From contig NZ_JBMOJE010000012.1 of assembly GCF_049316945.1 (NCBI RefSeq), positions 3,752-67,751 of the forward strand: a DNA stretch of 64,000 bases, read 5' to 3'. Below, in pieces: positions 1,590 to 44,490 of the stretch. The translations under genes were made by a program, and so were the position numbers. This DNA is from Propionivibrio sp. Lineage in GTDB: Bacteria; Pseudomonadota; Gammaproteobacteria; Burkholderiales; Rhodocyclaceae. The notes beneath the pieces were generated by a model. That model did not search any database. It had not been told where the DNA came from and saw only the letters and a list, made by a program, of their open reading frames with translations. Position 1 is the first letter of the stretch; every line of letters begins with the position of its first letter.

Positions 1590-1590
1590 G

Positions 1591-5537: not shown

Positions 5538-5547
5538 CTGAGAAAAG

Positions 5548-5598: not shown

Positions 5599-5650
5599 AA
5601 TTCGAGCAAACCCAAAAAAAAACGTCACGTCACGCACACATGAGGTCACC

Positions 5651-7653: not shown

Positions 7654-7664
7654 CGGCAAATTCG
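7639..7664. repeat. Second copy of the TTGTAGCG(Y)TGTAGCGGCAA(A)TTCG motif
   Basis: GTTGTAGCGCTGTAGCGGCAAATTCG spans the stop codon of the 6448-7653 gene. It matches 5581-5605 (TTGTAGCGTTGTAGCGGCAATTCG) apart from one substitution and one extra A. Confidence 0.6.
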
Positions 7665-7804
7665 GGGGACCGGTCAGTTGTATTGACGGTCCCCGTTGCA
7701 ACGTGAGGAATCTCTCCTTACTTGGCCGGCTGATCTCGGTGGGCCAGACGACGATTGAACCGCCATAGTTAACGATGCTAAACGTCCGCGCCTCACTATG
7801 CGAT

Positions 7805-8557: not shown

Positions 8558-8648
8558 GAGGTCATTATTACCCCTTTGGTTTGGAACTCATATCCGACGA
8601 CGAGTTATTTCTTGGACACGATGAGCGAAGCGAGCCGTCTGAAGTGAA

Positions 8649-10247: not shown

Positions 10248-10257
10248 GGCAGGCCCC

Positions 10258-11181: not shown

Positions 11182-11308
11182 GATTGGATTCCTTTGTTTG
11201 TATGCCAATGGCGAGTACAAAACCGGTTTCACTAACTGTGGTTTTGTGAAACTGCTTGGCGAAAATGAAAGCGGCACGATTGCCGCTGGCGAGAACTGAC
11301 CGGGTGGC

Positions 11309-16438: not shown

Positions 16439-16650
16439 GTGTTTTCTCCACTGACTTGGTCCGGAAATGGCTTGGCAAACCGCACCATGCGCCCCAGACT
16501 TTTTTCGATTTCGGTGAAGCCACTACCGTACTCGTGCACCAATTGTTGCGACAGTGTCGCAACAAACCGTTCCCCGCAAACGACCTTCTTGTCATGCGGA
16601 ACTTCGCGACGAATGCGGCTCTGCGAATTCACGCCAGAGTTTGCCTTCAT
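16435..16650 (-). CDS. 71-aa fragment of a DUF1016 (YhcG-like) N-terminal domain, lacking the PD-(D/E)xK nuclease domain
   Basis: [39 protein letters not shown] matches the remembered YG-x-x-IVATLS-x-QL-x-x-EYG-x-GF ... RM-x-x-FA-x-x-FPD block of DUF1016 proteins. ATGA overlaps occur at both ends. It may be a remnant or a mini-protein. Confidence 0.5.
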
Positions 16651-17918
16651 CCCCTTTTCTCCGTACTTGCGGCATAGATCGTCAAAACCAACTCACTGTC
16701 ATCTTTCAATCGGTACTCGGGGCGCTTCCCGGAAAGTTGCTCGCTTCGCGCCAAAATGATCGCCACCCCTTCGCCACGCTTGTCCATGATGTGGCTGCGG
16801 TGGTTGACCAACATGTCATCGATGATCGGGCAGCGGGCCAGCAGGCTGGTCAGTGCCTCGTTACGCGCTGCCTGACGGTATGGCAAGCTCTCAGGAGTCA
16901 TCGTGTTTGGCAACATGCCTGGGGAATACAACTCCAGCCTATCGTCGAACAAGCGCAGTCGCACCTTCGCCCCCGCCATGGAGTAATCCCGGTGGGCCAC
17001 TGCGTTGGTCACGGCTTCGAACACGGCCAGCATGTCGAATTGAGGCACATCCTCGCGCCCGCCCTGCGCGTGCTTGTAGGCAGCCACCCTCATGTTTTTG
17101 CGAACGAAGGCGCATGCTTCGAGAATCTGCTGATCCAGTGGGCCGCTGATGTCCTGGGCATCCTGCTGGTAAGCAGAGTCACCCTCTGGCAGAGCGTCCG
17201 TGCCCTGATACGCCACGGCCTGGATGAAGGCACCCGGCAGGTGCTGCCGTGCCGTACGACTGCTCATGAGCAATCCAGCCACCGTAGGATGCCAGTCACT
17301 CTTGTCGTCACAGGCCGCCATGGCGAGCTTGTTCAACAAGATTTCCGGCGCATCGCTGCTGTTCATCGGCGCGAAGCGCCGCCAAAGCGCCTCGTCCAGA
17401 TCGGCCAGAGTGGCGCGAGTAACCGGTGTTTCGTCAAAACGAATCAAGCGGGATTGGCTGCGCTGCTGGAATAGTCGGGCCAGTTGATCCGGTGGAATCG
17501 GACGCTTGGACGAGCCGACACGATGAAGATAACCGCCCGGGCTTTGATGGACAAACAGACTGCGCTCCACTTCCAGCCGGAACACCGGTTGTTCCGTCCC
17601 CGCGAAGTCGGGTAACGTCATACGTTCGATGATGGGAGCCAAGGGCGGTTTGATCGACTGTTCGCACGCCTGCCTTACCACCAGCTCCACGGCGTCAAGG
17701 TGTTCGATGGGGATGCCGAGCACCTCCCGGCTGGTGTCTTCCACGCCTAGCAACAGGACTCCGCCCACACTGTTGGCGAAGGCAGCCAATTCGTCGGCCA
17801 GGGCGTCCTGAGACGGCCCCCTGACCTTGCCACCAGCGAATTTCACCTCCTTCAATTCGAGATAGCTGTCCTCACCAAGCCGGATTTTTTCCAGCAATTC
17901 ACTGCGTGTTGCCAACAT
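16647..17918 (-). CDS. AlbA_2 (Schlafen-like) DNA-binding domain protein with a C-terminal HATPase_c_4-like region (often annotated RecG-like/transcriptional regulator)
   Basis: MLATRSELLEKIRLGEDSYLELKEV is the typical AlbA_2 start. AVFEAVTNAVAHRDYS...LELYSPG is the HATPase_c_4-like block. ATG 17918 lies 1 nt after the upstream TGA with GGAGG as RBS. Confidence 0.8.
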   Translation of the reverse strand: MLATRSELLEKIRLGEDSYLELKEVKFAGGKVRGPSQDALADELAAFANSVGGVLLLGVEDTSREVLGIPIEHLDAVELVVRQACEQSIKPPLAPIIERMTLPDFAGTEQPVFRLEVERSLFVHQSPGGYLHRVGSSKRPIPPDQLARLFQQRSQSRLIRFDETPVTRATLADLDEALWRRFAPMNSSDAPEILLNKLAMAACDDKSDWHPTVAGLLMSSRTARQHLPGAFIQAVAYQGTDALPEGDSAYQQDAQDISGPLDQQILEACAFVRKNMRVAAYKHAQGGREDVPQFDMLAVFEAVTNAVAHRDYSMAGAKVRLRLFDDRLELYSPGMLPNTMTPESLPYRQAARNEALTSLLARCPIIDDMLVNHRSHIMDKRGEGVAIILARSEQLSGKRPEYRLKDDSELVLTIYAASTEKRG

Positions 17919-17919
17919 G

Positions 17920-20703
17920 TCAAACCTCCGTTCCCAGGCGCTTCCAGCGTCGGGCAAAAGCCTCGTGCCCACCTTCCATCACGCGACAGACCTCTCGACG
18001 CACCGAGGCCTCCTGCAACGAGCCACTTTGTTGCACAAAGCACTGTCCGCGACCGAACTCCATGATGTGCACAAGTTCAGCATCGCCATTGACGACCACG
18101 TTCGGGTTGTGGGTCACGACGATGAGCTGGCGGCGCAGTTTGTTCTCCCGAATCTGCCGAACGATCAGGTCATAGATCAGATGGTTGTCCAGGTCGTCTT
18201 CGGGTTGATCGAGTACGATGGGCTCCTCGCCAAACGCCAACAAGAAGGCCAGCAGAGCCGCCGAACGCTGGCCCTGCGAGCCTTGACTGATGGAAGTCCA
18301 ACGGCCATCGCGCTGATACTCAATCCGCAAATCGTCTTCCGGAAACCACGCCAGAACGTGATCGTCAAACTCTGGCTTATCACTCTTGCGCTTGAGATAG
18401 TTGCGGAAGTGCCCTCCCAAGGTGGCGTCTCCGTCCAGCAAGCGGCGTTTAGCCGCTTCGAGTGCACGGGTCTTGGTGGCCTCGTCCGCCTGTGCCAGAT
18501 CGAATGCCATCCCACCCGAAGGATCGCCGTCCTCCATCAAAAGGATGTCGTCAGCAAATCTTTCGTCCGTTACGTCGATCAATTCACGCAGATCGCGCTC
18601 GATCTGCCGCGCATCGAACCCAAAGGCAACGACCGCCATGCGGACATGGGGATTACCAGCCAATGCGTTCTCAATGAACAACTGGCGCGCCTGCGTGATG
18701 GCCTGTCGCTTTCGGGCCACGAGCGCCATTTGCGCTTCAATCTGCTGCAATAGCGTCACACGGTCGCTCTGCATCTGCTTCAGCGCTTTGTGTTGTGCTT
18801 CCAGTTGTTGGCGTTCTTGAGTCAAGCGAGCGAAGGCCTGGGGGTCGTTCACTCCTTGCTGTGCGAGTTGCTGTTGCAGCGCGGCATGCGCCTGCTGTGA
18901 CGCCTGGACACGCGCCTGCCATTGCACAAACCGAGCATCCTTTGGTTGGGATTCACCGAGGGCAAAAAGCTTGCGCGCCTGTTCGAGGATGCCAATACGG
19001 ATCTGCTCGACCTGCTGATTGATCTCTGCCCGCCATGCCAGCAAACCAGCATCCTGTTCGGTGAAATGCTGGCTGGACCAATCATCCAGCACGATGAGTT
19101 CGGGCAACTCGGCAATACGAGTCGCACCATCACGCAGTTGTTCGAACAGCGTCTTGACTTCCCTGCTTTGGTGCTGCGCTTGTGCGTAGGCGCGCAGTAC
19201 CACTGCATGGTCGGTCTGCGACAAGGCAGCCAGCTTTTTCCCGGCCTCATCCAGCTTGCGCTCGACCTCCGCCTGCCCGGCCAGCTTGCCGTTTAACTCG
19301 CGCAATCGAGCGCGCTGCGTGAAGAAAGTGCGTTTCGCTTCTTCAACGGATTGCTTCAGCGGATCGACGTTGGCCGCTTCGTCGATGATGGAGAGCAGCG
19401 TCTGCCGTCCGCCGCCCGCCAACGCCGCAATCTGCCCTTGGGAAAAGATACGTAAGGGGAAACGCGCCGCATTCACACTCTGGCTGGACGATGCATGCCA
19501 TTGTCCTGCTCGCCATTCCTCGACTGCGATGTATTGGCCTTCGGGTTGCCATCGTAAACGAAGGCGCGCGTCTTCATGCTGCCATTCCAAGCCGATAGTA
19601 GTATTCGAGCGCAAGGCGCCTTTATCGTCCCGGCCATTGGCCGACTTGCAAAACGCTGCAAACTGCGCCGTTGGTTCACTCCCTTGGCCCAGCGCCACCA
19701 ATTCCTGTTCACGCCGCGCCGCCAGTCGGAGGGCGTGTACCACGGTAGATTTGCCCGTGCCACGGCCACCAACCACCGCATTGAAAAACGGAGAGCAGGC
19801 CAATCGTGCTGGCTGCCCATTGCCCATGTAGCGAGCCTGCCCGACCTCGATGGCTGTAATGATGTGGGTTGGCACCCGGAAGGGGTCAAAAGCGCCCTCG
19901 TCACTACGCCGAATCGACACGCCATTGCCATCCAGCAAGGCCAGCCGTAGCCCTTCCAGCGTTGGCGATGCCATCTTGACCCAAGTGTAGCGGCTGCCGG
20001 GAACAGCAGCCCCTTGGAAGCTGTGGCAATCGCTGCCGAGTACGCGAGCAAAGCGAGATTCGTCTTGCGCAACGCATTGCGGCCATGGCATCGACGTGTC
20101 GCACCACTCCACCGCTAGCCCCCCTCCGACCGCAATGGCCTGACGCAACGTGTTGCTGTCGAACTGGCTCTGGCTGGTCCCCGGTCGGCATTGCAGCAAA
20201 CCCTTGGCTTGGTCAGCGTGAGCAGGAATTGCAACGGCTCCGGTCGCCTGGATAGCGCGAATCACCTCGGCGATACCCATGCTGGTTACGCCGTCGCTGT
20301 CTCCCTTAGTACCCTGATAATCGACTCGGCCCAACAGGGTGTCGATGTCCCCGGACGTCGCTGCGGGATCGAAGAGAGCTAGCACGTGTACCCCACCGTT
20401 GGCCGAGATTTCCACTCCAGGAAAGATCGTCAGCTCCCGAAACCCAGCAGGCACCGGACCTGCGTTGGCCTGCTGCTTCATCGTTGCGTAGGCCGATTTG
20501 AGCCGGTCGATCCACGCGCCACTGTTGTGATCGGTCACCGCCACACAGTCAATCTCTTGAGCCATGTACTGTCGCAACCAGTCTGCCTCGGTTAACGTCA
20601 GATTCTGCTGATGCCAGGGCGTATCACGCGAGGCTGGTGTATGGGTATGGAAATCGAATTTCCACCAGCGCGAACCCGGGTACGGCCACTCCATCGTTGC
20701 CAT
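17920..20703 (-). CDS. PHP phosphoesterase domain fused to an SMC/Rad50/ABC-type ATPase with a long coiled coil (Ppl/TrlF-like)
   Basis: PHP motifs are KFDFHTHTPASRD, AVTDHNS, IPAHAD and GSDCHS. Walker A is GGRGTGKST. About 250 aa of Gln/Ala-rich coiled coil follow. The signature and Walker B read SQGQRSAALLAFLL...IVLDQPEDDLD. ATG 20703 lies behind AAGGGGGA. Confidence 0.85.
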   Translation of the reverse strand: MATMEWPYPGSRWWKFDFHTHTPASRDTPWHQQNLTLTEADWLRQYMAQEIDCVAVTDHNSGAWIDRLKSAYATMKQQANAGPVPAGFRELTIFPGVEISANGGVHVLALFDPAATSGDIDTLLGRVDYQGTKGDSDGVTSMGIAEVIRAIQATGAVAIPAHADQAKGLLQCRPGTSQSQFDSNTLRQAIAVGGGLAVEWCDTSMPWPQCVAQDESRFARVLGSDCHSFQGAAVPGSRYTWVKMASPTLEGLRLALLDGNGVSIRRSDEGAFDPFRVPTHIITAIEVGQARYMGNGQPARLACSPFFNAVVGGRGTGKSTVVHALRLAARREQELVALGQGSEPTAQFAAFCKSANGRDDKGALRSNTTIGLEWQHEDARLRLRWQPEGQYIAVEEWRAGQWHASSSQSVNAARFPLRIFSQGQIAALAGGGRQTLLSIIDEAANVDPLKQSVEEAKRTFFTQRARLRELNGKLAGQAEVERKLDEAGKKLAALSQTDHAVVLRAYAQAQHQSREVKTLFEQLRDGATRIAELPELIVLDDWSSQHFTEQDAGLLAWRAEINQQVEQIRIGILEQARKLFALGESQPKDARFVQWQARVQASQQAHAALQQQLAQQGVNDPQAFARLTQERQQLEAQHKALKQMQSDRVTLLQQIEAQMALVARKRQAITQARQLFIENALAGNPHVRMAVVAFGFDARQIERDLRELIDVTDERFADDILLMEDGDPSGGMAFDLAQADEATKTRALEAAKRRLLDGDATLGGHFRNYLKRKSDKPEFDDHVLAWFPEDDLRIEYQRDGRWTSISQGSQGQRSAALLAFLLAFGEEPIVLDQPEDDLDNHLIYDLIVRQIRENKLRRQLIVVTHNPNVVVNGDAELVHIMEFGRGQCFVQQSGSLQEASVRREVCRVMEGGHEAFARRWKRLGTEV

Positions 20704-20714
20704 GTCTTTCCCCC

Positions 20715-23651
20715 TTAAATATCCAAGGCGCCCTGCGAGCCGACCAAACCGGCGTCACCGGCAGACTGCTCAATGCTGGACCACGCCGTCACCAACTCGT
20801 TATAGGCGCGGGCCTCTTCGGCCCAGCCTTTGCGCTCGCAGAGTGTGTAGAGGCGGTAGGCCAAAGCTCGCATTGGTTCGGCACGTGCAGGCATGCGGGC
20901 CAGCAATGCACCGGCAGCGGATTCGCCCTGGCTGTTGAGTGCACGAATCAGTTGGTGCAGAGCCTCCCAAACAGGTGTGCGCGTATCGGTCTCGGGGCTC
21001 CAGTCGGCAGGCAATTCAGCCCAGCGCAGTAGGCGCAACTTGCCGGCACCGCTCTCGATCACGCCCGCATCCTGCAAACCGCCGACGCTGGTGCCTTTGG
21101 CGCGGGCCAACACGTCAGCTTCACCGTACTTGCCCTCAGCCCAACCCAGCGACTCAAACCAGTGCAGGCAGAACTGCGTGTCGTGGTCGAAATCATCCTC
21201 GGCAAAGAAGCGATTGATAAGTTGCAGCGCGGTACGCACGCTCATCGGTTTGCCGTCAGCTTCGAGAACGGCAGCGTACTGGCTGAAGATCGCCATGCCG
21301 GGGCCGATGATGGCCTGCGACAGATCGACCGGAGCAACTGGCGAATTGACGCCGCCACGGGTCATATCAAGCAGAGCTTCGGGCAGGTGAGAATTGAGTT
21401 CGCGCAGAAATTCGCGGCGGCTGACCGTGAGGGCATCGGTGGCGCGTTTTCGGCAGACGAGGACGATACTGGAGGCGAGTGCGTTGGTGCCGGAGCCGAT
21501 CATTCGGTTGCTGAGTTCGGTACGCATCGGCCAAGTGCCGGTCAAGGCAAAGCCAGCGCGAAGAACCGCATCAAGAAAGGTTTCCCAACCTGTACTGTGC
21601 GTCCCAGCTTCACCCTTAGTCTCGGCTTGCTTGAATGCGTAATAGATTGTCACCGGGAAAGCGCCATGAGCTTGTTCGGCCAGATTACGCATCGCATGCG
21701 TCATGCCATCAAGGAAGAATATTTCCGCTTCCTCTTTGCCGCCGTGGCGGTAAGAAGTGGCGACCAGTTCCTCAGCCTTCGGCACAGCCAGAGTCGCATA
21801 CAGGCTAGGGAAAATTGGTTTCAGACTCCTGCGTAACCACACGTAAAAGAAATCTGAGAGGTCGGCATAACCAATGTTGTCGTAGTACGGGGGGTCTGTA
21901 GAAACGACTTTTGCAGTACTGATAGTTTGGGTTTGGGCATCGGATTGCTCGGCATAGCCACGAGCCTGAGTCGGCATAAGTTGCAGCGCTTTATAGGCCC
22001 AATCGATCCCGCTGCTCACATTACCCGTTGAGTCAGAAAATGGATTTGTTTCCGCATAGTCCCAAGTCATGGGAATGGCTTGTCGTCCGAAGGTGTTGCG
22101 AATCAGATCTTTGCTGGAATGCCAAGTACAAATCGACGACCAGTAGTCGGACGCTTTGTCTATGGAGAAAGCCAAAAACACTCCGATTGCCTGCGCATAC
22201 GCCGTCGCGCCAGCGCCGACTTTGTCGAGCGGGAGGTCGTGGTCGAGCGCTGCGGCGGCATCAGGCCGATTTTTTTGCAAGTTGTCATTGCGCTCCCAGG
22301 TTGCAAGAGCGTCCTGCCGACAGCGCTCTATAGCCTCGGACACTAGGTCGGAAAGTGTTGTCAGCGCGACTAGCTGACGCGACGTGAAGAGGTCGCCCCA
22401 TTCCGTCAAGCCGTAGGGCACACATGTGCCGCCAGTCAGACGCGCCGGGACATTGCCCGAAGGTTTCCATGTGGGCTTCGCTAGCAAAGGGACGGTTTCG
22501 TGCTCGACAGTCGGCGCCAGATAAATGCGGCCACGCACACCTTCTGCCACAATCGCCATCAAACGAGCCCCCATTCGACCCGCTTGGCCTTCTGCCTTTA
22601 TATAGTTGCCGCTAATCGGGGTTTGCGATAACACGCAGGCGAAGTTGGCTCCGCGCCCAGGGGCCTTAGTGCCGTCAATTGCCTTGGCGGTTGGGGCTCC
22701 CGTTTTCACAGTGAAGCGATAGCAGTCCCCATCCACCACTGGCTCGACATATGCTTCCTTACCTTCCTTGCTAGACAACACGAAAGTTGAGACCAGCGGC
22801 ACTTCTGCGTGACTGAAAGCCGGATTAGGGCTTTTTACTGTTCGAGCCCATAGCCAAGCAATGACCGTCAACTTCTGCCCAAGCAAAGGCTTGAGGTCAG
22901 GACGCTCGGAAACTATCTCTGCCGTAATTTCTAATTTCGGATAAAGATGACCGATGCGCTTTTTTGCCTCAGACCTCATCCAATCGCCATAACGCCGAAC
23001 GTCCTCGGCCAGCCCCCGCGCACCCGCCCAATCCTCACTCAGGCTGCCTTGTTGGTCACCGGCCAGCCTTGGCCCGACTGGTGCGCGACCGGCAAAGCGC
23101 GGCGGGATTTCGATCATCGCTTTGTTGATTGTCACCGCCACCGGATTGAGGTCGCTGGCGTAGCTTTCTAGCCCCAAGCGCTGCGCCTCCAACGGCAACG
23201 CACCACCGCCAGCAAAGGGATCATGGAAGGCCGGCAATTTGTCTGGGTTGAACAAGTCAGCCGCCTGCGGATGCCCCTTGTTCAGCTCACAAGTCTCGCG
23301 CCAACTGCGCACGATTTCGGCACGCGCACGGGACAGCACCTCCTCGTTGTTGGTGTTCTCCCAGAGAACGAGGTCCTCGATGATCTTGAACAGCCGCTCG
23401 CGCTCGATAGCGGCCTTTTCCTTGTTCACACCGTACTTGAAGCCGCCGCCTTGCTGGTAGCCGGGATCGTTGACCATCTGCGCGAAGATCACTGCACGTG
23501 CTGCCGCAAGCGGACGTCGCGCCCACCACAAATGCAACGTGCTCGGGTGGCCGTGACGAATGGACTTTTCTTTTGCCGCTGCCACGTTAATGGCATCAAG
23601 CGGTAGGGCGACTTCGATAAGCTTCTTTGGAGTTTTGATGGTCGTGGTCAT
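20715..23651 (-). CDS. DUF1156-family DNA methyltransferase (DPPY type, N6-adenine or N4-cytosine)
   Basis: The N-terminus [45 protein letters not shown] is the DUF1156 hallmark. The SAM motif is [10 protein letters not shown] and the catalytic motif is [22 protein letters not shown]. The start overlaps the upstream stop (ATGA). Confidence 0.9.
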
Positions 23652-24352
23652 TTGTTTTCCTGCTGCTTGCTGCCTTTTGTTTTGTTGGTGCGAGGCGGGC
23701 GCTTGGGCGTAGCCGCAGCTAATTCCTTGGCCTTTTCTTCCAAAACTTCCGCGTGAATCACTCGCTCTACGATATCTATGACGGTGTTCAATGAGTCGGC
23801 AGTCGGTTGATGTCCTCTATGCATTGCGGCAGAGCCTGCCTCAAATGCAGCCTCAATAATAGGGCGTTCTTGTATGCTCAAAAGATTCGCATTTTGCAAA
23901 GCATCGAGACCCGCAACAAAACTGCCGTGATCCCCAATCTTTTTGGAGATCGCTTTGTCGATGATCGACCTTGCTCCCATCATTGCCAATCGCCTGCTGT
24001 CGGCGTGCAATGCGGTATAGACCTCATCGAGTAGCCCGTGATAACCCGGAGCCTCTCGCCGCAACAGCCAATCAGGTTTTCGCCTGGAGACTCGTGGAGG
24101 GAAATACGTCGGGGTATATCCATCCTGCGGGTCATCCTCTGAGCACCAGTCGATTCGACTCATGGCAACCTCGTTGCATCCGCAGCATTGCAGAATCCGC
24201 CAGTTGGTGCCCACCGAAACCGTGCATCGGTCTGCGTCAAAATCGCGTGATCTACGGATCAGTTTCACGACTTTGTGCAAAGTTTCTTGGCAGCATTCAT
24301 TGCAATGCGACCAAATCGGGGGCTCCGTTTTTGCTCTCGTGCCACTGGTCAT
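23648..24352 (-). CDS. zinc-ribbon plus DUF4145-like protein (234 aa) with a basic C-terminal tail
   Basis: CNECCQ...CCGCN gives a four-Cys ribbon. The helical C-terminal region ([24 protein letters not shown] ... AAMHRGH) resembles the DUF4145 domains found in R-M loci. ATGA overlaps occur at both ends. Confidence 0.65.
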
Positions 24353-27300
24353 AGCGCACTTCCGGGTTTGATGGATCGCTTCAGCAGTTCTGGCAAGTCA
24401 AGATTAATGCTGGTCACCGCCCAATCTGGTTCCTGCGTAAAAGGCGTGGACACGTAATACGGACCTTCGTGGTGATCGCCATCGACGATGACTATTGCCA
24501 GAATGAATTTGTCCTGCTGATTGAGGCCATAGAGGATTTCATTGCGGGTGACGGTAATCGTGCTTTGCCCCTTGGCGCGACCCTTGACCTCAATGTGTCG
24601 TGATGCGGGCAGCTTGCCGTCGATGGCCCTTGGCAGGCTCGTTACGTCCCAGCCACATTTCTGCGCCGATACGTCGATAACTTCATGCCCGAGTGCGCGC
24701 TCGGCATCCATCACGGCATTCATGGCGATCCACTCGACGCGTGCACGCGCATCGGCGTCGGCGCTCCATCCCGGTTGGCCTTTGCGTTGTGCCAGCAAGC
24801 CTGCCGGAATGACCAGCGCACCGCCAGCCACCACGGGTGTAGCCGAGATAACGTGGCGCATGGCGAGGAGTTCCTTTTCACGCGACTCCCGGCGTGCGGT
24901 CAGATCGTCAATTGTGCGGCGGACGTTTTCGAGCGTCAGGCGAACGTCTTTGCCGGCAGCCATGTCGTCTCCGAGCTTGATGTAGCGATCCGACCAGTAG
25001 TTGATTTCCTTGACCAGACGTTCGTGAACCGCATTCAAGGTCTTGTCGACGTGCTTTTCGCGCCGGCTTCGCACCTCGTCGAAATGTTCGGGCACGAGAT
25101 GCGTCGAAGCATGCGCCAGTGCCTGCTGTTCAAGGTTTTGCGTGATCCACGGCGCGGCAAGCACGTCTTCGATCAATGCAACGTCTGCCTTGTCGATGGG
25201 TTCAAGGTCGAGGTGAGGTGCCCAGCCGGCGTTAATTGCGCCGCCTTGCGGATCGATCTCGACGAACTGCATGCGCCGGGAGACGACGTGCGTCAGGTCG
25301 GCGCCTTCCTTTACGGAGTGGTCGATGATGAGCATGACCTTGGGCGTAATACCCATGTCGCTTGAGTCGACGAGGATTGCACCCTGCTTCAGCTTGTTGC
25401 GGTGCTGCTCCATCACAATGTCAGTCACCGACTGCATCAAGGGATGGCCGGGGTGCATCAGGCTCGCCATCGGTGCCCCGATCTTGTCGGCCACGCGGAC
25501 GAACTGCTTCTCGAAGCAGACGCGCTCATAACGGCGCAGCACCGGGTCGGCGTTGCGGCGATCCCGGCCAGTGATTTGCCGATCACGTTCGCGGATATTG
25601 GCCGGAACGTGGGTAATCTCGTAGCGGCCCTGCTCACGTGGCCGCAGTTCGCCACCCAGTCGTTGGAATGCCTGATTGAAGAATGAGCGGATGAAATAGG
25701 GCTGAAGCTTGCGCGCTTCGGCCTTTTCCATTTCCTCCTTGACGGCGAACAGGCGGCGCTCGTCCATCACTTCTTCGCATAAGGCGTTGCGCTTGATGAT
25801 GGTTTCGAGATGCTGCGTATCCAGCGCGCCTTCTACTTTGCGATGCAAGCGGGCACGAATCTCGGGGTCGTCGCCGTAGCGGATGGCTTCGATCAACAAA
25901 TCTTTGAGGCTCTTGTCCTCGAACACTTCGCCGAGAATGTCGAACACGCGACCGCCCAGTGCCTTGCGCTCGACTTCCAGTTTTTCAAAGAGGCGCTGAA
26001 AAACATCGCCTTCGCGGGTCTCGGCGGCGACCATGTTCCAGAGGTGGCATACCTCGGTCTGCCCGATACGGTGGATACGTCCGAAACGTTGCTCAAGCCG
26101 GTTCGGGTTCCACGGCAGGTCGTAGTTAACCATCAGGTTTGCGTTTTGGAGGTTCACGCCTTCGCCTGCCGCGTCGGTCGCCAGCAGCACCCGAGTGGAA
26201 GGATCGTTGCGAAATAGCTCCTGCACCTTGCGGCGATCTTCGCGTTTGACGCCGCCGTGGATCATAACCACGGATTCCTCATTGCCGATCAGGCCGCGAA
26301 TCTTGACGGCGAGGTAATTCAGCGTGTCCCGGTGCTCGGTGAAGATGATGAGCTTGCGCTGGCGACCATCGGCATCACGCATCTCCGGTGTGTTCTGGAG
26401 CAGCTTGGAAAGCTCGTCCCATTTGCGGTCTTGGCCGGAATGGACGACTTGCCGTGCTTGTTCCTCCAAGCCTTCGAGGATGATGATTTCGGCTTCGAGT
26501 TCCTGAATCGTTTGGGCGGCGGTGGCCTGATCGACGACGGCTTCCTCGAAGTTTTCGTAGTCATCCGGCGATAGTGCGTCGGCTGATTCCCAAATGTCGT
26601 CCGGTACGTTGTTGAAGGTAGTCGTGTTAAGGGTTTCAGCCAGCGAGTGCCCACGCTGGCGCAGCTTCTCGTCTTCTACACGGCGCTTGAGCTTGGAACT
26701 GCGACGCCGCAGTGACTGGTAGATCGCTTCCGGGCTGGAGGCCAATCGACGTTGCAAGGAAGTGAGTGCGAACCCGACCGTGCCCTTGCGTGCGCCATCC
26801 TGAAGCTGATCGGCGCGGTTCATTTCCTCCTTCACGTAGTCCGTGACGGCGGTGTACAGCGCGGCTTCGGGGTCAGATAGTTTGTAGTTGGCGGTGCGTG
26901 CCCGGCGCTCAGGGAACAGGGGCGAGCCATCGAACTTGAGCAGGTCTTCCTTGACCATCCGGCGCATGAGGTCGGTCACATCCACCTTGTGCGCGCCATC
27001 GCGGAACTTGCCGTAGAAACGGTCGGAGTCCAGCAGCGACATGAACAACTGGAAATCTTCCTCCTTGCCGTTGTGGGGCGTGGCGGTCATTAGCAGGAAG
27101 TGACGGGTAATCGACCCCAGCAACTCGCCAAGCAGGAAACGCTTGGTCTTATTGACCTTGTTGCCGAAGTAGCTGGCCGAGAGCTTGTGCGCTTCATCGA
27201 CGACGATCAGGTCCCAATGCGACAGGCGCAGCTTTTCCTGTAGGTCTTCGGCGCGGGACAGTTGATCGACGCGGGCAACCATCAGGTCGATGTCGTCGAA

Positions 27301-27885
27301 GGGGTTGCCGCTGCGCGACTGCTCAACCTGCTCGCGGGAAAACAGCGTGAAGGACAGGCCGAACTTCTCAAACATTTCATCCTGCCACTGCTCGACCAGA
27401 CTGCCGGGAGCAACGATCAGGACGCGCTTGGCGTCGGCACGCATCAGCAGTTCGCGGATGAACAACCCGGCCATGATCGTTTTGCCCGCACCGGGGTCGT
27501 CTGCCAGCACGTAGCGCAAGGGCTGGCGCGGCAGCATGGATTCGTACACTGCGGTGATCTGGTGCGGCAGAGGTTCGACGTTGGAGGTATGAACCGCCAT
27601 CATCGGGTCGAACAAGTGCGCGAGATTGATCCGATAGGCTTCGGCGGCGAGCTTGAATTCCTCGCCGGGTGCATCGAATGCCCACGGACGGCCAGCTTCG
27701 GCCAGCGACAGGTTTGCCTCGTCGGTGCGGAAGAGCATGCGCTCAAGCAGCTTGCCGTCCGGGGTCTTGAAATAGACGGTGAGGGCGTTGTCGCCGACTG
27801 GCTCTGTCGTGACGACGCGAACAACATGCCCCGGCTCGATACCGGAGATGGCTGCATTTTTCTTGATGTCTTCGAGTTTCAGCAT
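24349..27885 (-). CDS. SNF2-family helicase with a C-terminal DUF3883 (restriction-endonuclease-like) domain
   Basis: The helicase motifs are DDPGAGKT (I), VVDEAH (II), MTATPHNG (III), [11 protein letters not shown] (V) and [11 protein letters not shown] (VI). The C-terminal GWDVTS...RHIEVKGR...ILAIVIV is DUF3883-like. ATG 27885 lies behind GGAGA, 2 nt after the WYL gene's stop. The 37-codon extension in the ORF track is rejected. Confidence 0.9.
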
Positions 27886-27887
27886 GG

Positions 27888-28781
27888 TCAGGCTTTCTCC
27901 GGCTGTTCGTACCCCGGCGCCAACAACAGGTTGGTCACGCCGTAGAGGGCTTGCCGGTTGCGCAGCCAAAGGTGGAATTCGGACCCGCGCAGGCAATGGT
28001 TTTCGGTGCAGTCAACATTCCAGCGACGCACCAAGTAGCCGGCGAGCGCTGCGCGAACCAGCACCTTGAGTTGCCCGTCCTCCATGCCGTACTCGGCCTC
28101 GATGGTGTCGGGGTGCTGGACGTTGGCGGGGTGCGGAACTAGTTCGAGGTCAACGATGCGATTCCATTGATTGTCGCGGTCCGAGGTCTCGTGCTCGCCG
28201 ATCTCGCTGCTTAGTGCCTTGGCGTCGGCGATGCGTGCCAGTACGAAATCGCGGAATTCGCCGCTGCGACGATCAAATGCCCGAACGTGCCAGCGCTGTC
28301 CGTTGTCGGCCAAGGCGAAGGGCACGATCTCGCGTGTGGTCAGGCCGCTGGTCAGCGCACGGTAGGAAATCTCGACCGGTGATTTGCTGTAGATGGCCCG
28401 CGTAACCACCGAAAGGGTATCGAGGTCAATCTTGCTCGATACGACCATCGGCTCGCAGGGAAATGGCGAGCGGAGGCGCAGCGGCTCGGCATCGCCGAAT
28501 CCTTGCGACAGCCAGGTCAGGATACGGTCTGCCGAGAAGTCGAACACCGGACGGAACCATTCGCCACAGCGATACGCCTTGCTCTTGGCGTCGTAGTCGA
28601 GGTTGCGCGGTGCCAAATCCTTGTATGCGCCGAGGTCGCGTGTCGCTGCCGCCGTTTGAATACCGAAGCGTGAAACGAGGTCTTGACGACGAAACTCCCC
28701 GACGAAGCGAAGACGCAACTCGATGAACGCGAGGCGGTCACGCTGAGATTGGGTAAGTTCCGACAGTTGCTGAGTGGTCAT
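27888..28781 (-). CDS. WYL-domain transcriptional regulator (BrxR/CapW-like)
   Basis: An N-terminal wHTH-like region ([29 protein letters not shown]) is followed by the WYL core [35 protein letters not shown]. It is the first gene of the operon. Confidence 0.85.
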
Positions 28782-28819: not shown

Positions 28820-28847
28820 GCGCCTTATTGATAAGTCAATAAGGCGC
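28820..28847. promoter_or_regulatory. Perfect 12-bp inverted repeat GCGCCTTATTGA-TAAG-TCAATAAGGCGC; candidate operator of the WYL regulator
   Basis: Read directly from the sequence. It lies 39-66 nt upstream of the WYL start (28781) in the 98-nt gap after the preceding gene. No U-run follows on the minus strand, so a terminator is unlikely. Confidence 0.5.
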
Positions 28848-28879: not shown

Positions 28880-29569
28880 TTACGTCGAACCAGAGAATGC
28901 GGCGATTAGGCTTTTAACGTCTGTAGCGATTTGGCGATCCAGCGCGTCGAAGACATCAAACATCGGGGTGTCGTCTCTGTAGCGGTTGAACCATTCTTCG
29001 TTTGAGAAGGGCATCACCAAGTCTGCTTCGCGCTGAAGACGGTCAATTGCGGCATCGGCCCTGCGGTTACGGACGCCCTCATACTCGAAGGGCGTTACCA
29101 CGGCGGCAACCGTCACTGCCCCGGCATCACGGGCTGCACGCGACATGATCGGCGTAATGCCGCTACCGGTCCCGCCGCCAAGCCCGGCGAGCAGAACGAC
29201 CATGTCGGAACCGGTGAGCAATTCCGCCAAGACGGCCCGATGGCGAAAACAGGCTGCGCGTGCTGCATTGACTCGTCCGCCAGCACGGACCGGCGCGAGC
29301 ATCAGCGTCTTGATCGGTGCCAGCGCAGGATTGGCATCGTTGGCAATATCAACGAACTCCAACGCGTGCGGGCCGAGATCGATGCAAACATAGCTCAGTG
29401 CCACACCCGCTCGATCCAGAATGTTGCTCGCACGCAGCGCAGTGACAAGGTTGCATCCAGCGGCACCGATACCAATGATCTTGCATGAGGGTGCTGGCGA
29501 TGCGAAAGCGGGAAGACTCAGGCTGGCAATACCAGCGCCGAACGTTTGCAGGAAAATCCTGCGATTCAT
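28880..29569 (-). CDS. FtsZ/tubulin-like GTPase domain only (229 aa) with an N-terminal Tat-like signal peptide
   Basis: CKIIGIGAAGCN corresponds to the FtsZ G-box 1. GLGGGTGSG is the tubulin signature. VVTPFEYEG corresponds to FtsZ VTKPFxFEG. The protein ends right after the H7-like helix, before the T7 loop. The N-terminus MNRRIFLQTFGAGIASLSLPAFA matches the twin-arginine pattern. The RBS is GAGGGA. Confidence 0.75.
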   Translation of the reverse strand: MNRRIFLQTFGAGIASLSLPAFASPAPSCKIIGIGAAGCNLVTALRASNILDRAGVALSYVCIDLGPHALEFVDIANDANPALAPIKTLMLAPVRAGGRVNAARAACFRHRAVLAELLTGSDMVVLLAGLGGGTGSGITPIMSRAARDAGAVTVAAVVTPFEYEGVRNRRADAAIDRLQREADLVMPFSNEEWFNRYRDDTPMFDVFDALDRQIATDVKSLIAAFSGST

Positions 29570-29596
29570 GTTGGTTCCCTCGTAGTAGAGGCGCGA

Positions 29597-29836
29597 TTAC
29601 CAGTTGGCGAGTACCTCCTCGTCAGTGGGCGCACCTTGTTTGAATTTCGGAGGCGCGTCGTCTGCGGCGTAACCCGCATGAACGTCGCGCTCCTTGACAG
29701 GACGAATGACAATGTCCCCGGCGTCGGTGAGCCGCACAAACAAGTAATCGCCGGGACGCAGCCCGGTGCGCTCAATCACGTACTGGGGCAGGCGTAATCC
29801 CAGGCTGTTGCCCCACTTGCATAGTTTCGTCGGCAT
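29597..29836 (-). CDS. AbrB/MazE/SpoVT-family DNA-binding protein (antitoxin-like, 79 aa)
   Basis: MPTKLCKWGNSLGLRLPQYVIERTGLRPGDYLFV is the swapped-hairpin signature (WGNS-x-x-x-R-x-P). ATG 29836 is chosen, so the 31 extra codons in the ORF track are rejected. The gene ends 27 nt before the FtsZ-like start. Confidence 0.75.
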   Translation of the reverse strand: MPTKLCKWGNSLGLRLPQYVIERTGLRPGDYLFVRLTDAGDIVIRPVKERDVHAGYAADDAPPKFKQGAPTDEEVLANW

Positions 29837-29949
29837 GGCAGTTCGATAACCTCGCTGATAATCAATGGCTATCAAATTGCCAATCCGGGGTTCCTGAACA
29901 GATAGGCGTAACCGGCCTTGACCATGCACCGGTTACGCTACCGTCGGCC

Positions 29950-30450
29950 CTATTTGCCTTCTGGCCGCAGGGGCGTTACTCCGATGTGCCACGAAATCGG
30001 GAAGCCCTTGATGTCCATGCGCACGTGCTGTTCAGGGGGAACCCAGTACGCTGGGTCAATGCAGTACTCGACGTTGGGCTTGCCTGCCGCCCCTCGCTGT
30101 CGGATGAAGATCACGTGGCGACCGATCTCGGTTTCGGGGTTGTACTCGACCATGCCGATACAAACATCCGGGAGGGAGGCGATGCCGGCGCTCTCCTTGT
30201 ATACCGTCGCGGTGAAAGACCAGTTGGCGAGTAGCTTAGCGATCAGGACTTCGTCCATGATCGTGTAAGGACCATTTTTGGGAAACTTGAAACGGTCGAC
30301 AGCGACCTGACGAACCTCGGCCAGCGGACGATTGACGATCATGGCGATGCAGGCCAGCCAGCAATCGAACTCATTGGTCTGGGCGACGCGTTTAAACGCC
30401 GGCTGAAAACCCGTTGCCGGGGCTTGTGCTGCGGTGGGAGCGGTAGCCAT
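29950..30450 (-). CDS. stand-alone papain-like cysteine peptidase, C39-like
   Basis: AQTNEFDCWLACIAMI supplies the Gln and Cys. GRHVIFIRQ...YCIDPAY supplies the His and Asp, in the order and spacing of C39 bacteriocin-processing peptidase domains. A strong AAGGAGG RBS precedes ATG 30450. Confidence 0.65.
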   Translation of the reverse strand: MATAPTAAQAPATGFQPAFKRVAQTNEFDCWLACIAMIVNRPLAEVRQVAVDRFKFPKNGPYTIMDEVLIAKLLANWSFTATVYKESAGIASLPDVCIGMVEYNPETEIGRHVIFIRQRGAAGKPNVEYCIDPAYWVPPEQHVRMDIKGFPISWHIGVTPLRPEGK

Positions 30451-30871
30451 AAGGCCTCCTTGAAAAGTAGTGCGAGAAAAAAGCGCAGCACTACCCGCCC
30501 GATGGACGAGGCCTCGGGTTTGGTTTCAACGAGTAGGGAATTTGCCAGTCGGCGACGCCGTGCCCGATACGAATTCCGGGGGGCTGTCCGATCAAGCGAG
30601 TGATGCTGCGCAGTGAGTCACGTTTCGGTCTGCAAGCCAATGGCCTGCCGCAAACGTGACGAACGTAGTTTCGCCGAACCTGCCAAATTTTTCAGGACGG
30701 AAAAACTTCGCCGCTGACGCCGCCAAGATATTGCCCGTCCGGGCTACCCGGCTTGGGTGAACGCACATTCCTGGCTACACGTGTGTCTAGTGTGGGAAAA
30801 TACTCGATTAGTTATAGATTTAACGGCATCTTCTAGCCGAAAAATCACTGCAATCTATTGGCATATGTTGT

Positions 30872-30892: not shown

Positions 30893-30987
30893 ACGACGTA
30901 TTGCCCTACTAAGCACCGCATGGATACTGAGTTATGAAGCAATTAAACATAATCGCACGCTACGTCGAGCGCATGCTCAACCCGGAC

Positions 30988-31023
30988 GCACCCGATGCAC
31001 CCGATGCACCCGATGCACCCGAC
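30988..31023. repeat. 9-bp tandem repeat GCACCCGAT x4 (last unit GCACCCGAC)
   Basis: Read directly from the sequence. It lies inside a 35-codon ORF (30934-31041) and encodes (DAP)n. It ends 18 nt before the ribBA start. Confidence 0.9.
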
Positions 31024-31041
31024 TCCCCGGAGGCTCAGTAA

Positions 31042-44212: not shown

Positions 44213-44403
44213 AGGGCCTCCATTGCTATGAAATTATTAACGGCCAGATATCACGCAAGCTTTAATCGAGTTGGTGCCCAGAAAACAGAAATGTTGATGG
44301 TCGGTAATTTCTCCGGCGAGCGATCGTCGTGTGCCCGTTAAATGCGAACTAAAGGGGTCACAATCGCATTTTTCCGTGAAATATGAATGCCGTGCTGGCC
44401 TTG

Positions 44404-44490
44404 AGCGGGCGACCGGATTCGAACCGGCACAGCGGGGTGGTGCCCCTTCAGGCTCTGAAGGCCTGCGTGCTACCGTTACACTACACCCGC
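44404..44490 (-). tRNA. 87-nt tRNA gene with anticodon UCA (reads UGA) and a long variable arm; not a canonical bacterial tRNA-Sec fold
   Basis: Hand-folded cloverleaf. The acceptor stem is GCGGGTG/CGCCCGC (7 bp). U8 and A9 follow. The D-stem is GTGT/GCAC with loop AACGGTA. The anticodon stem is CAGGC/GCCTG with loop CTTCAGA. The 20-nt variable arm has a GGGG/CCCC stem. The T-arm is GCCGG-TTCGAAT-CCGGT. The discriminator is T and no CCA is encoded. Confidence 0.7.

Follow-up and report, generated by a model that had tools for sequence, protein, structure and literature searches.

Is a protein consisting of little more than the GTP-binding half of FtsZ, preceded by an export-type leader, a toxin aimed at cell division or a tubulin-type domain that works outside the cytoplasm? 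The question is raised by three co-oriented minus-strand open reading frames encoding a peptidase-like protein (Pep), a MazE/AbrB-type protein and a truncated FtsZ (FtsZN). They lie in the window, the whole stretch of 64,000 nucleotides that was analysed (Table 1). The GTPases of the FtsZ and tubulin kind are familiar as polymer-forming proteins of the cytoplasm, and we know of no protein of this fold that is a Tat substrate. An earlier note on this DNA had offered both readings: a half-molecule that caps FtsZ filaments and is neutralised by the MazE-like protein, or, if the leader is genuine, an exported tubulin-like domain not yet described. The reading preferred here, held tentatively and at slightly less than an even chance, is that FtsZN is a Tat-exported, non-polymerising, nucleotide-loaded monomer, with MazE as an ancestral partner and Pep as a facultative one.

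Table 1. Coordinates of the cassette features in the window
Feature	Position	Strand	Description
Gene 1, Pep	30450..29950	-	166 aa, stand-alone leaderless C39/papain-fold domain
Gene 2, MazE/AbrB swapped-hairpin antitoxin-type	29836..29597	-	79 aa
Gene 3, FtsZ fragment	29569..28880	-	229 aa, FtsZ GTPase domain and helix H7
Gene 3 leader, codons 1-23, Tat-type MNRRIFLQTFGAGIASLSLPAFA	29501..29569	-	Predicted signal-peptidase site between AFA and SP
Mature gene 3, FtsZN	28880..29500	-	Nucleotide-binding domain (S1 to T6) and H7, then stop codon
Perfect 10-nt inverted repeat (GCGTAACCGG, 13 nt, CCGGTTACGC)	29906..29938		Inverted-repeat search
Perfect 12-nt palindrome (GCGCCTTATTGA-CTTA-TCAATAAGGCGC)	28820..28847		Inverted-repeat search

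The cassette at the edge of a defence island

The cassette is real. In a Rhodocyclales host of the Accumulibacter/Propionivibrio type, it is the cargo at the outer edge of an integrative defence island of the P4 type, ~30 kb long. The island lies between leuA and ribBA and runs in the order int, alpA, DUF3631, HmaC, Schlafen-like, Ppl, HmaB, DUF4145, HmaA, WYL and cassette. The co-oriented genes with good ribosome-binding sites described earlier were recovered: a strong Shine–Dalgarno sequence, AAGGAGG, stands ahead of gene 1 (30461..30455), GAGGGA ahead of gene 3, and 27 nt separate MazE from FtsZN. The inverted repeat inside the 113-nt Pep–MazE spacer may form a hairpin or serve as an operator. 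The palindrome between the FtsZN stop codon and the start of the WYL gene (28781) is probably where the cassette ends and where the WYL–Hma unit has its operator and promoter. PADLOC-DB v2 matches the neighbours of the cassette (HmaA/B/C, Ppl and WYL) and returns no match for Pep, MazE or FtsZN. In related loci PhD–ParE modules adjoin, and the position of the cassette is always the island terminus or beside the integrase.

An FtsZ fragment with a Tat-type leader

Gene 3 had been recognised as FtsZ by eye, and profile and structure searches bear this out. The Pfam Tubulin/FtsZ GTPase profile (PF00091) matches residues 29–195 at E=8.4e-23 (82.1 bits; cut-off 33), covering profile positions 2–187 of 190, and the tubulin signature GLGGGTGSG is invariant across the family of homologues. 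A phmmer search of the PDB returned 50 FtsZ chains (best E=2.8e-20), with alignments that stop at query residue 219–223. The AlphaFold2 (AF2) model has a pLDDT of 87.5, and in Foldseek, the fold check that had been proposed, its top 50 PDB matches are all FtsZ (rmsd ~1.8–2 Å over ~200 columns, TM(query) 0.61–0.75). The protein is nevertheless far from a canonical FtsZ: NCBIfam ftsZ (TIGR00065) aligns over model positions 19–203 of 353 with 105 bits, far under the equivalog cut-off of 295.2, and the window fragment is only ~36–39% identical to host-type FtsZ.

The claim that the protein stops directly before the T7 loop also held, and the end point proved to be a family trait. Its terminus, AAFSGST, aligns with the ...EIINVPG of canonical Rhodocyclales FtsZ, immediately before the T7 loop LVNVDFEDV. 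The T7 synergy loop (NxDxxD), the C-terminal linker and the conserved FtsA/ZipA-binding peptide are absent from FtsZN, and the Pfam search gives no match to FtsZ_C (PF12327), the C-terminal domain that activates the GTPase. Homologues number 230 at E<=1e-3, almost all of 225–260 aa, and 29/29 aligned members end 0–30 residues after H7; shorter fragments, such as P0044 and P0066, occur among database members. Judged from these alignments, FtsZN founds an undescribed FtsZ-derived betaproteobacterial family of >200 sequences, ~230–250 aa long. Searches of plasmid, phage and IMG/VR collections yielded no homologues.

Within the family, 30/45 of the canonically conserved N-domain positions are kept. 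Those conserved include T1 (GxGxAGCN), T4 (GLGGGTGSG), T5 (PFxxEG..R, with the Arg143 equivalent), N190 of T6 and F207 of H7; those replaced include NTD of T2 (which becomes DLG), Q48 (S. aureus numbering), G62 and G68. Mutation of the T2 Asp of S. aureus FtsZ abolishes assembly (10.1101/2021.11.29.470395). At interface regions A, C and D, FtsZN has 0.17–0.29 identity to host-type FtsZ, whereas distant canonical FtsZs have 0.30–0.56. As far as motifs can show, the guanine-nucleotide pocket is thus intact while T7, the C-terminal domain and the T7-docking residues of T2 are lost. The loss of these docking residues and of most filament-interface surfaces argues against an FtsZ-capping toxin and for a Tat-exported nucleotide-loaded monomer.

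The N-terminus, MNRRIFLQTFGAGIASLSLPAFA followed by SP, fits the Tat consensus, as had been claimed. The n-region motif is N-R-R-I-F-L-Q (consensus S/T-R-R-x-F-L-K), the h-region TFGAGIASLSLPAFA is weakly hydrophobic and uncharged, and a small-x-small site, AFA before S, follows. A crude Tat filter applied to the 64-kb window retained the FtsZN frame and only one other. When leader features were scored by a rule-based scan on 119 near-full-length family representatives, RR was present in 108/119, the pattern xRRx[FLIVMY][LIVMFT] in 101/119, an uncharged stretch of >=12 residues in 107/119 and a small-x-small site in 100/119; the same scan picked out 1/108 canonical FtsZs. A leader of the form M-[DN]-R-R-x-F-L is therefore a trait of ~90% of the family, with M[DN]RRxFL...LP.x.A common to aligned members. 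In a few (P0092, P0099, P0101, P0104, P0115 and P0117) RR has become xR or the leader is missing. Synonymous and non-synonymous differences stand at 7:5 and 7:4 in the leader and at 43:25 and 32:21 in the core, a pattern that indicates purifying selection on the leader, like that on the core. A selected leader in ~90% of members predicts export. Further, leader residues 9–23 have a pLDDT below 50 in the AF2 model, and in some members a Pro/Gly/Ser-rich linker of 20–25 residues joins the small-x-small site to strand S1, which fits a leader that is cleaved. The Tat assignment is thus a prediction from motif, hydrophobicity and conservation. The literature searched holds no report of a Tat substrate with a tubulin/FtsZ fold and no description of such proteins, in agreement with the earlier remark that an exported tubulin-like domain was undescribed.

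The truncated family has relatives of full length. Six FtsZ paralogues (P0244, P0255, P0256, P0281, P0304 and P0359) in the same kind of island bear a Tat-type leader and lack the C-terminal FtsA/ZipA-binding tail. One clade among them, that of P0244, shares 68% identity with the canonical FtsZ of Rhodocyclales, and at locus L172 three consecutive genes carry Tat-type leaders. All FtsZN-type and full-length Tat-FtsZ genes reside in integrative defence islands. In a neighbour-joining tree the truncated family is monophyletic in 49/50 bootstraps and stands beside the full-length Tat-FtsZs in 0/50, so that the leader may have been gained more than once or a long branch may mislead the tree.

Genomic partners and competing explanations

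The MazE/AbrB identity of gene 2 is confirmed by the Pfam MazE_antitoxin profile (PF04014, E=4e-9) and by PDB MazE/AbrB chains (7d2n, 1mvf and 1ub4; E=7e-7 to 3e-3); matches to NCBIfam doc_partner, ChpS and MazE all fall below their cut-offs. The protein ends in a conserved acidic tail with a terminal Trp, APTDEEVLANW, which aligns with the tail of E. coli MazE. The layout is that of a toxin–antitoxin (TA) module, with an antitoxin of known family directly upstream, co-oriented and 27 nt away, yet the sole domain that Pfam and NCBIfam find in its partner is Tubulin, and no MazF or other toxin gene stands beside MazE in any locus examined. The survey of homologue neighbourhoods that had been suggested found MazE linked to the FtsZ fragment across 36–100% identity of the fragment. 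It directly adjoins the fragment in the window and in L001, L003, L006 and L088–L091, and in L001, L088, L090 and L091 it is 97–100% identical where the fragment is 79–86%. An opposite-strand gene separates the two in L170 and L171; L011 has a MazE fragment directly upstream and an intact MazE 2.7 kb upstream; MazE is absent from L010 and from the whole of subfamily B. It is an ancestral but dispensable neighbour of the FtsZ fragment.

Pep is a looser companion. Its match to Pfam Peptidase_C39 (PF03412) is sub-threshold (13.8 bits against 22, E=0.05, residues 20–40 only). Its AF2 model (pLDDT 86.6) finds C39 domains and papain-like toxins in Foldseek at E=3e-5 to 1e-3, the best match being the PCAT1 peptidase domain (E=2.9e-5); LahT (6mpz, 7.6e-4), the papain-like toxins 8ssm/9l5u, the C39-like domain 3b79 and, in BFVD, a phage C39 protein also match. 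The C39-like call on gene 1 is thereby upheld. The claim that its Q, C, H and D follow the C39 order stands for the window protein (Q24, C30, H112, D132) but not for every homologue, since Asp replaces Cys30 in 7/32 of the aligned homologues (79 in all). No ABC transporter gene and no gene for a GG-leader (double-glycine) substrate was found in any locus examined. Pep shares contigs with FtsZN in different genera (Rhodocyclales, Rhodoferax, Hylemonella), and in Herbaspirillum and Undibacterium its neighbours are an integrase gene and a convergent gene of the HTH_XRE type, with neither FtsZN nor MazE present. It is a facultative neighbour of the FtsZ fragment.

These observations can be assembled in several ways. 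In the preferred reading, FtsZN would fold and bind GTP or GDP in the cytoplasm, be exported folded by the Tat system and be cut by signal peptidase after AFA. Its place of action would be the inner membrane or further out, where it would work as a monomer that carries its nucleotide and does not polymerise; it would not cap the FtsZ filaments of the host. The usual reason for taking Tat over Sec is that folding and ligand loading must precede transport, and export of a pre-folded, ligand-loaded FtsZN would explain the use of Tat. The MazE-type protein would be an ancestral small partner and DNA-binding autoregulator, whose acidic Trp-ended tail may hold FtsZN before export; the C39-fold protein would be a facultative island-edge neighbour, sometimes catalytically dead, that may regulate or process a partner. 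Island-borne phage exclusion or defence, or maintenance of the element, would be the most probable role given the genomic context. Several points count against export, among them the members with a changed or missing leader and the tree that sets the truncated family apart from the full-length Tat-FtsZs. The periplasm is not known to supply nucleotide or to hold a partner for FtsZ, so that no concrete extracytoplasmic activity can be named. Further, a MazE with a tail of the toxin-binding type 27 nt upstream, with PhD–ParE adjoining in related loci, is the textbook mark of a type II toxin that acts in the cytoplasm.

The toxin reading of the earlier note is, in our view, distinctly unlikely. 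A half-FtsZ that stays in the cytoplasm would cap the T7-exposing filament end through its GTP face, with MazE neutralising or repressing it and the peptidase activating or processing it. FtsZN is indeed FtsZ-derived, keeps the GTP pocket and the T5 interface loop and has lost everything needed to accept the next subunit; Du and colleagues are said to have reported (PNAS, 2018) that FtsZ mutants of the bottom face are toxic cappers. The MazE tail resembles the MazF-binding tail of E. coli MazE, the linkage persists over the full range of fragment identity, the MazE-less subfamily B has a tightly coupled small downstream gene that could be a replacement antitoxin, and TA and defence genes abound nearby. 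However, the proposal leaves the conserved, selected Tat leader unexplained. The capping mechanism is further weakened by the change of T2 NTD to DLG and the loss of Asp46 and Gln48, both of which dock the incoming T7 loop and are needed for SaFtsZ assembly, and by regions A, C and D, in which even distant FtsZs resemble the host protein more closely. Against a neutralising role for MazE speak its absence from subfamily B and L010 and its separation in L170/L171, and PADLOC matches none of the three proteins. The genes may also be independent island-edge neighbours, found together through common descent of the island backbone and not through a joint function, which we likewise consider improbable. 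In that case MazE would act as an orphan antitoxin or as a regulator of the AbrB type, and might amount to an anti-addiction module. Pep would belong to the regulatory module of the element, perhaps as an ImmA-like repressor protease near integrase, AlpA or XRE genes, and the FtsZ fragment would be a solitary cargo gene. Consistent with this are the solitary Pep beside integrase and HTH_XRE, the genes interspersed in L003, L011 and L171, the unequal divergence in L001 (MazE 97%, FtsZN 81% and Pep 33% identical), the subfamily B fragment that has neither MazE nor Pep, and the constant placement of the cassette at the end of an island or next to an integrase. However, MazE stays near the fragment despite an inserted opposite-strand gene and down to 36–43% fragment identity, no locus examined offers it a MazF or other toxin, and Pep and FtsZN recur together across Rhodocyclales, Rhodoferax and Hylemonella.

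Very improbable, in our estimate, is an export-gated decoy or toxin, in which the FtsZ-like proteins, truncated and full-length, mimic host FtsZ in the cytoplasm and are continually removed by Tat, or carry phage FtsZ inhibitors out with them. Tat can export complexes in which one partner only bears the signal, the full-length Tat-FtsZ clade is close to host-type FtsZ and lacks the FtsA/ZipA-binding tail, and FtsZ-like proteins of this kind are carried by defence islands. That phages encode inhibitors of FtsZ is well established, as with lambda Kil (PMC3961180) and P1 Icd (PMC11897509). However, the proposal is pure inference without precedent, and the window fragment, with its diverged surfaces, would be a poor mimic. 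It comes in two forms: toxicity upon failure of export only, or 'hitch-hiker' removal of phage inhibitors by Tat.

Virtually no probability attaches to a decaying ftsZ duplicate or to a misassigned Rossmann-type oxidoreductase that bears a Tat signal, although FtsZN is truncated relative to FtsZ, shorter fragments are found in databases and Tat-exported Rossmann-fold oxidoreductases exist. Conservation at the family level refutes this reading. Against it stand >200 homologues with a common end point, purifying selection, the bootstrap-supported monophyly, the confident AF2 model, GGGTGSG and Foldseek matches to FtsZ throughout the top 50.

Relation to known systems

FtsZN shares with canonical FtsZ (TIGR00065; PF00091 and PF12327) the nucleotide-binding fold and H7, with T1, T4, T5 and T6 kept, and with betaproteobacterial FtsZ the GGAG form of T1 and a Cys before the T2 position. 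In contrast to these, it has no T7, C-terminal domain, linker or FtsA/ZipA peptide, reads DLG at T2, has gained a Tat-type leader and is encoded in a mobile island instead of the division gene cluster. Among described relatives are FtsZl1 and FtsZl2, non-canonical FtsZ-superfamily paralogues that likewise occur alongside a normal FtsZ (Makarova & Koonin 2010, PMC2875224). The same work describes them as the most diverged in the superfamily. FtsZl1, for which an antivirus role was proposed, has no recognisable T6–H7 and C-terminal FtsZ elements and combines a coiled-coil domain with operons of vWA, OmpA, kinase and GTPase genes; FtsZl2 (HHpred against PF00091, E=0.0033) carries a ~300-aa alpha/beta C-terminal region and has no conserved neighbours (PMC2875224). 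By these descriptions FtsZN is set apart, with its 229 aa, PF00091 match of 8e-23, Tat leader and MazE, C39, integrase and WYL neighbours. It also falls outside TubZ/PhuZ, the two-domain polymerising tubulins of plasmids and phages with a TubR-like adaptor; its PHROG PhuZ match is weak (8.8e-5) and confined to the N-domain.

MazEF type II modules resemble the cassette in the upstream MazE/AbrB-fold gene, its acidic Trp-ended tail, the 27-nt spacing and the other TA pairs nearby. However, the cassette contains neither MazF/PemK nor any other toxin of known fold, MazE and FtsZN do not always go together, and what MazE precedes is a piece of FtsZ that bears an export signal. If the capping model were right, the outcome would be the Z-ring block caused by SulA, MciZ, CbtA, lambda Kil and P1 Icd, small proteins encoded by mobile elements or made under stress, although none of these is known to be an FtsZ fragment or to have a signal peptide. 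Pep has the fold and the Q, C, H, D order of the bacteriocin-processing C39 domains of PCAT1 and LahT and of the C39-like domains of toxin exporters. It differs in being a stand-alone protein of 166 aa below the Pfam threshold, with no ABC transporter and no nearby double-glycine substrate, and in that about a fifth of its homologues have Asp for the catalytic Cys; HlyB-type C39-like domains likewise have no catalytic Cys. Cofactor-loaded Tat substrates, of which the periplasmic NADP-containing glucose–fructose oxidoreductase is an example, resemble FtsZN in placing an S/T-R-R-x-F-L-K-type leader directly before a Rossmann-like beta1–Gly-loop nucleotide-binding domain.

A family reduced to the GTP-binding half, with polymer contacts lost and a selected Tat signal, would take the superfamily in a new direction, as would full-length FtsZ with a Tat-type signal on mobile defence islands. 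FtsZN-type proteins may be the first tubulin-type proteins sent outside the cytoplasm; if so, the fold would gain a new cell-biological location and Tat a new class of cargo. If FtsZN is instead cytoplasmic and poisons division, it would be a new type of toxin, made from the target protein itself. Either outcome would add a candidate gene set to the island-borne defence and maintenance functions of wastewater-relevant Rhodocyclales (Accumulibacter, Propionivibrio). The wider proposition, that the whole island-borne FtsZ-derived set, truncated and full-length tail-less alike, is Tat-exported and comprises the first extracytoplasmic tubulin-superfamily proteins, we hold to be somewhat unlikely. 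On that proposition, one possibility is an envelope-level phage-exclusion factor, and another an export-coupled decoy that binds something in the cytoplasm, for example an FtsZ inhibitor of a phage, and ejects it.

The cassette and its truncated FtsZ

The three genes encoding Pep (a C39/papain-fold protein), MazE (of the MazE/AbrB antitoxin type) and FtsZN (the nucleotide-binding half of FtsZ plus helix H7 behind a Tat-type leader) form a real module. They are co-oriented, as the earlier note had described, and lie on the minus strand, with spacers of 113 nt (Pep/MazE) and 27 nt (MazE/FtsZN) and Shine–Dalgarno sequences ahead of Pep (AAGGAGG) and FtsZN (GAGGGA). A longer, GTG-started MazE ORF from 29929 is unlikely.

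Coordinates and content of features in the window and in other loci (L numbers)
Feature	Location	Strand	Content
Pep	window 30450..29950	-	166 aa (ORF listing and sequence reading)
MazE-type gene	window 29836..29597	-	79 aa counted from ATG (ORF listing and sequence reading)
FtsZN	window 29569..28880	-	229 aa (ORF listing and sequence reading)
Left island part	window 1540-11277		P4-type integrase (Arm-DNA-bind_3 + Phage_int_M), AlpA, DUF3631 protein, EEP-family nuclease, MORC-like HATPase_c_3 protein, second tyrosine recombinase
Hma defence system	window 13610-28781	-	Helicase-methylase-ATPase; WYL/BrxR-type regulator ahead
Palindrome	window 28820-28847		Perfect, 12 nt, GCGCCTTATTGA/TCAATAAGGCGC; 39 nt upstream of WYL gene start
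9-nt repeats	window 30982-31034		Four tandem copies of CCCGATGCA
tRNA-Sec gene	window 44403-44490	-	Sole tRNA of the window
About-300-aa protein	L170 1680-2585		Directly downstream of FtsZN; hydrophobic N-terminus
About-300-aa protein	L171 5831-6805		Directly downstream of FtsZN; SDH_protease match (ClpP/SppA-like)
Leader-bearing trio	L172 4550-7137		215-235 aa protein, RNase_T/DEDD exonuclease, full-length FtsZ
144-aa protein and Tat-FtsZ	L175 7570-9092		4-nt overlap
144-aa protein and Tat-FtsZ	L176 187-1709		4-nt overlap

All three domain assignments made from the sequence proved right. MazE matches MazE_antitoxin (Pfam, E=4e-9) and solved MazE/AbrB chains in the PDB. Pep has a sub-threshold C39 match in Pfam, and its structural model (pLDDT 86.6) matches the C39 peptidase domains of PCAT1 and LahT, papain-like toxins and a phage C39 protein; the catalytic Cys is replaced by Asp in 7 of 32 homologues. 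The tubulin/FtsZ fold of FtsZN is borne out by profile and structure searches alike. Its PF00091-type Tubulin/FtsZ GTPase domain (Pfam, E=8.4e-23) covers profile positions 2-187 of 190, while the NCBIfam ftsZ model is matched only at positions 19-203 of 353, with 105 bits against a cut-off of 295 bits. A phmmer search of the PDB retrieved 50 FtsZ chains, the alignment ending at residue 219-223. In the AlphaFold2 model, residues 28-228 are confident and 9-23 disordered, and the best 50 PDB matches are all FtsZ (50/50; rmsd about 1.8-2 A over about 200 columns). The end of FtsZN aligns to ...EIINVPG of canonical Rhodocyclales FtsZ, just ahead of LVNVDFEDV, the T7 loop, in agreement with the original reading that the FtsZ part stops there.

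Although FtsZN sits in the FtsZ/tubulin superfamily, every test placed it outside canonical FtsZ, FtsZl1/FtsZl2 and TubZ/PhuZ. Membership of FtsZl1/FtsZl2 is ruled out by differing sizes, similarity levels and neighbourhoods (PMC2875224). A TubR-TubZ-like partition module, with a small DNA-binding protein and a tubulin, was rejected, as FtsZN has no C-terminal domain and no homologues in plasmid, phage or IMG/VR collections. A known defence system was likewise rejected, PADLOC giving no match for any of the three proteins. PHROGs returned a weak PhuZ match and one MazE-like family of unknown function, nothing else. Full-text literature searches found no relevant report on Tat-signal FtsZ, defence-island FtsZ fragments or truncated-FtsZ cappers.

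Predicted export leader and nucleotide pocket

Relatives of FtsZN number 230 among 5.8 billion proteins; nearly all are 225-260 aa long, and those named come from Propionivibrio, Accumulibacter and other Rhodocyclales. Among species-representative genomes, identity above 35% over the full query length is confined to Rhodocyclales, Rhodoferax, Hylemonella and Burkholderiales. A neighbour-joining tree recovers it as monophyletic (49/50 bootstraps) for the FtsZN family, and the members of a 29-sequence alignment, with identity down to 43%, all end within about 30 residues past H7. The Tat-type leader recognised in the window is kept across most of the family: among 119 near-full-length representatives, 108 have RR near the N-terminus, 101 xRRx[FLIVMY][LIVMFT], 107 at least 12 uncharged residues in a row and 100 a small-x-small site. 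The same features occur in 1 of 108 canonical FtsZs. Since synonymous to non-synonymous changes among close relatives are proportioned in the leader (7:5 and 7:4) as in the core (43:25 and 32:21), the leader is translated and constrained. In some members, a Pro/Gly/Ser-rich linker of 20-25 residues separates strand S1 from the cleavage-type site. A pseudogene or chance ORF is ruled out by family size, common end point, purifying selection and the confident model. Conserved Cys29/39/62 were considered as a periplasmic disulfide or metal site and dropped; Cys62 and the T1-loop context were already present in betaproteobacterial FtsZ and passed on from it, and are therefore uninformative on the location of FtsZN.

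Of the 45 N-domain positions conserved to at least 85% in 78 diverse canonical FtsZs, the family retains 30, including the whole nucleotide pocket (all of T1, T4 and T5 with the Arg143 equivalent, the T6 Asn and the H7 Phe). Replaced (S. aureus numbering) are T2 N44-T45-D46, which becomes D-L-G, and Q48, G62 and G68. In S. aureus FtsZ, the T7 loop that comes in is bound at its N208 by D46 and Q48 of the subunit on the nucleotide side, and the D46A mutant fails to assemble (10.1101/2021.11.29.470395). Further, segments A (H6-H7 loop), C (T3) and D (T2/H2) of FtsZN have 0.17-0.29 identity to host-type FtsZ, compared with 0.30-0.56 for the same filament-contact segments of distant canonical FtsZs; T5 is the sole filament-contact region conserved as well as in the latter. 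With pocket motifs retained and T7-docking residues and interface identity lost, FtsZN looks like a nucleotide binder that would no longer make canonical longitudinal contacts.

Related loci and competing readings

Gene orders and neighbours at related FtsZN loci and at loci of full-length Tat-FtsZ
Locus	Arrangement
L001, L006, L088, L089, L091	Pep-MazE-FtsZN; then PhD-ParE in L001, L006, L088, L089
L090	MazE-FtsZN, short contig
L003	Pep-hydrolase-243aa-MazE-FtsZN
L171	Int-AlpA-Pep-AlpA-MazE, opposite-strand 154-aa gene, FtsZN, SDH_protease
L170	MazE, opposite-strand 160-aa gene, FtsZN
L011	Pep-MazE ... MazE fragment-FtsZN-integrase
L010	Pep-121aa-Pep-FtsZN-integrase
L172	Tat-FtsZ with integrase, GmrSD, WYL, DUF2779
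L173	Tat-FtsZ with SIR2, DnaB, WYL
L174	Tat-FtsZ with divergent WYL gene
L175/L176	144-aa multi-pass membrane protein overlapping FtsZ start; TacAT, HNH, AAA genes near

MazE and the FtsZ fragment adjoin in several related loci; MazE is absent from L010 and from subfamily B (L004, L008, L009, L092-L095), which also lacks Pep and has instead a conserved downstream gene of about 140 aa, often overlapping FtsZN. MazE is probably the ancestral partner, and its C-terminal tail, P-x-D/E-E...W, is kept at every locus examined; the tail resembles that of E. coli MazE. Pep is a facultative neighbour: in Herbaspirillum and Undibacterium it stands alone, next to an integrase gene and a convergent XRE gene.

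The reading with the fewest extra assumptions, which we put forward tentatively as the best available, is that FtsZN would fold and take up guanine nucleotide in the cytoplasm, be exported by Tat in its folded, nucleotide-loaded state and work as a monomer at the inner membrane or beyond, MazE acting as autoregulator and possibly also as holder of FtsZN before export. The earlier note had proposed, for a protein that stays in the cytoplasm, a possible toxin-antitoxin pair, the half-FtsZ capping FtsZ as a toxin countered by MazE. This proposal is still conceivable but unlikely, because the export leader is under selection, T7-docking residues and interface conservation are lost, and whole lineages do without MazE. 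Functional independence of the three genes is similarly doubtful; an export-gated decoy or toxin is less probable still, and an artefact highly improbable. Judging from genomic context, FtsZN may have a defence or exclusion role. Interest is high because simple experiments could decide between two outcomes, each of which would be new.

The about-140-aa partner of subfamily B is rich in Cys in its N-terminal part (MRQELDDLLCQRYPDIFRDRH..GMCWGFGCGDGWF...) and ends in a zinc-ribbon-like tail, beyond which Pfam, PHROG and the PDB gave no relatives; a full-length Tat-FtsZ (L174) has it nearby as well. The about-300-aa proteins of L170 and L171 resemble each other by eye, although the L170 copy has no recorded Pfam match.

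Tat-FtsZ paralogues and island context

Searching 1.84 billion representatives with a profile uncovered full-length FtsZ paralogues (Tubulin + FtsZ_C, 350-390 aa) with a twin-arginine leader, without the C-terminal linker and peptide. Their N-terminus reads M-[DK]-R-R-x-F-L; a hydrophobic stretch comes next, then a linker some 40 residues long. The P0244 clade shares 68% identity with canonical Rhodocyclales FtsZ; others have a degenerate T7 loop. Their loci are again island-like. A common origin with the truncated family found no support in the neighbour-joining tree: the full-length proteins group with betaproteobacterial FtsZ, sharing a clade with the truncated ones in 0/50 bootstraps, which leaves it unproven that the leader arose only once.

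At L172, three successive genes with twin-arginine-type leaders adjoin an integrase, which suggests that some islands may export several normally cytoplasmic folds. At L175/L176, where the Tat-FtsZ is 84% identical to P0244, the 144-aa protein has three or four hydrophobic segments; a divergent 258-aa neighbour carries a Tat-type leader too and may, by eye, resemble the 243-aa protein of L003.

The island of the window extends between leuA and ribBA, with the cassette as its final cargo. Its other genes include those for a P4-type integrase, AlpA, DUF3631 and a second integrase, as well as the Hma system; a WYL regulator gene lies directly downstream of FtsZN. Neither island end has a tRNA. 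Three genes are inserted in the Hma operon: DUF4145 separates HmaA from HmaB, and genes for a Ppl-like ATPase and a Schlafen/AlbA_2-HATPase_c_4 protein separate HmaB from HmaC. The palindrome is likely a BrxR-type operator and the putative end of the FtsZN transcript. Promoter and terminator scans gave counts no higher than shuffled expectation, and Rfam showed neither an FMN riboswitch nor any other match in the 580-bp spacer to ribBA. The 9-nt repeats directly precede the start codon of ribBA.
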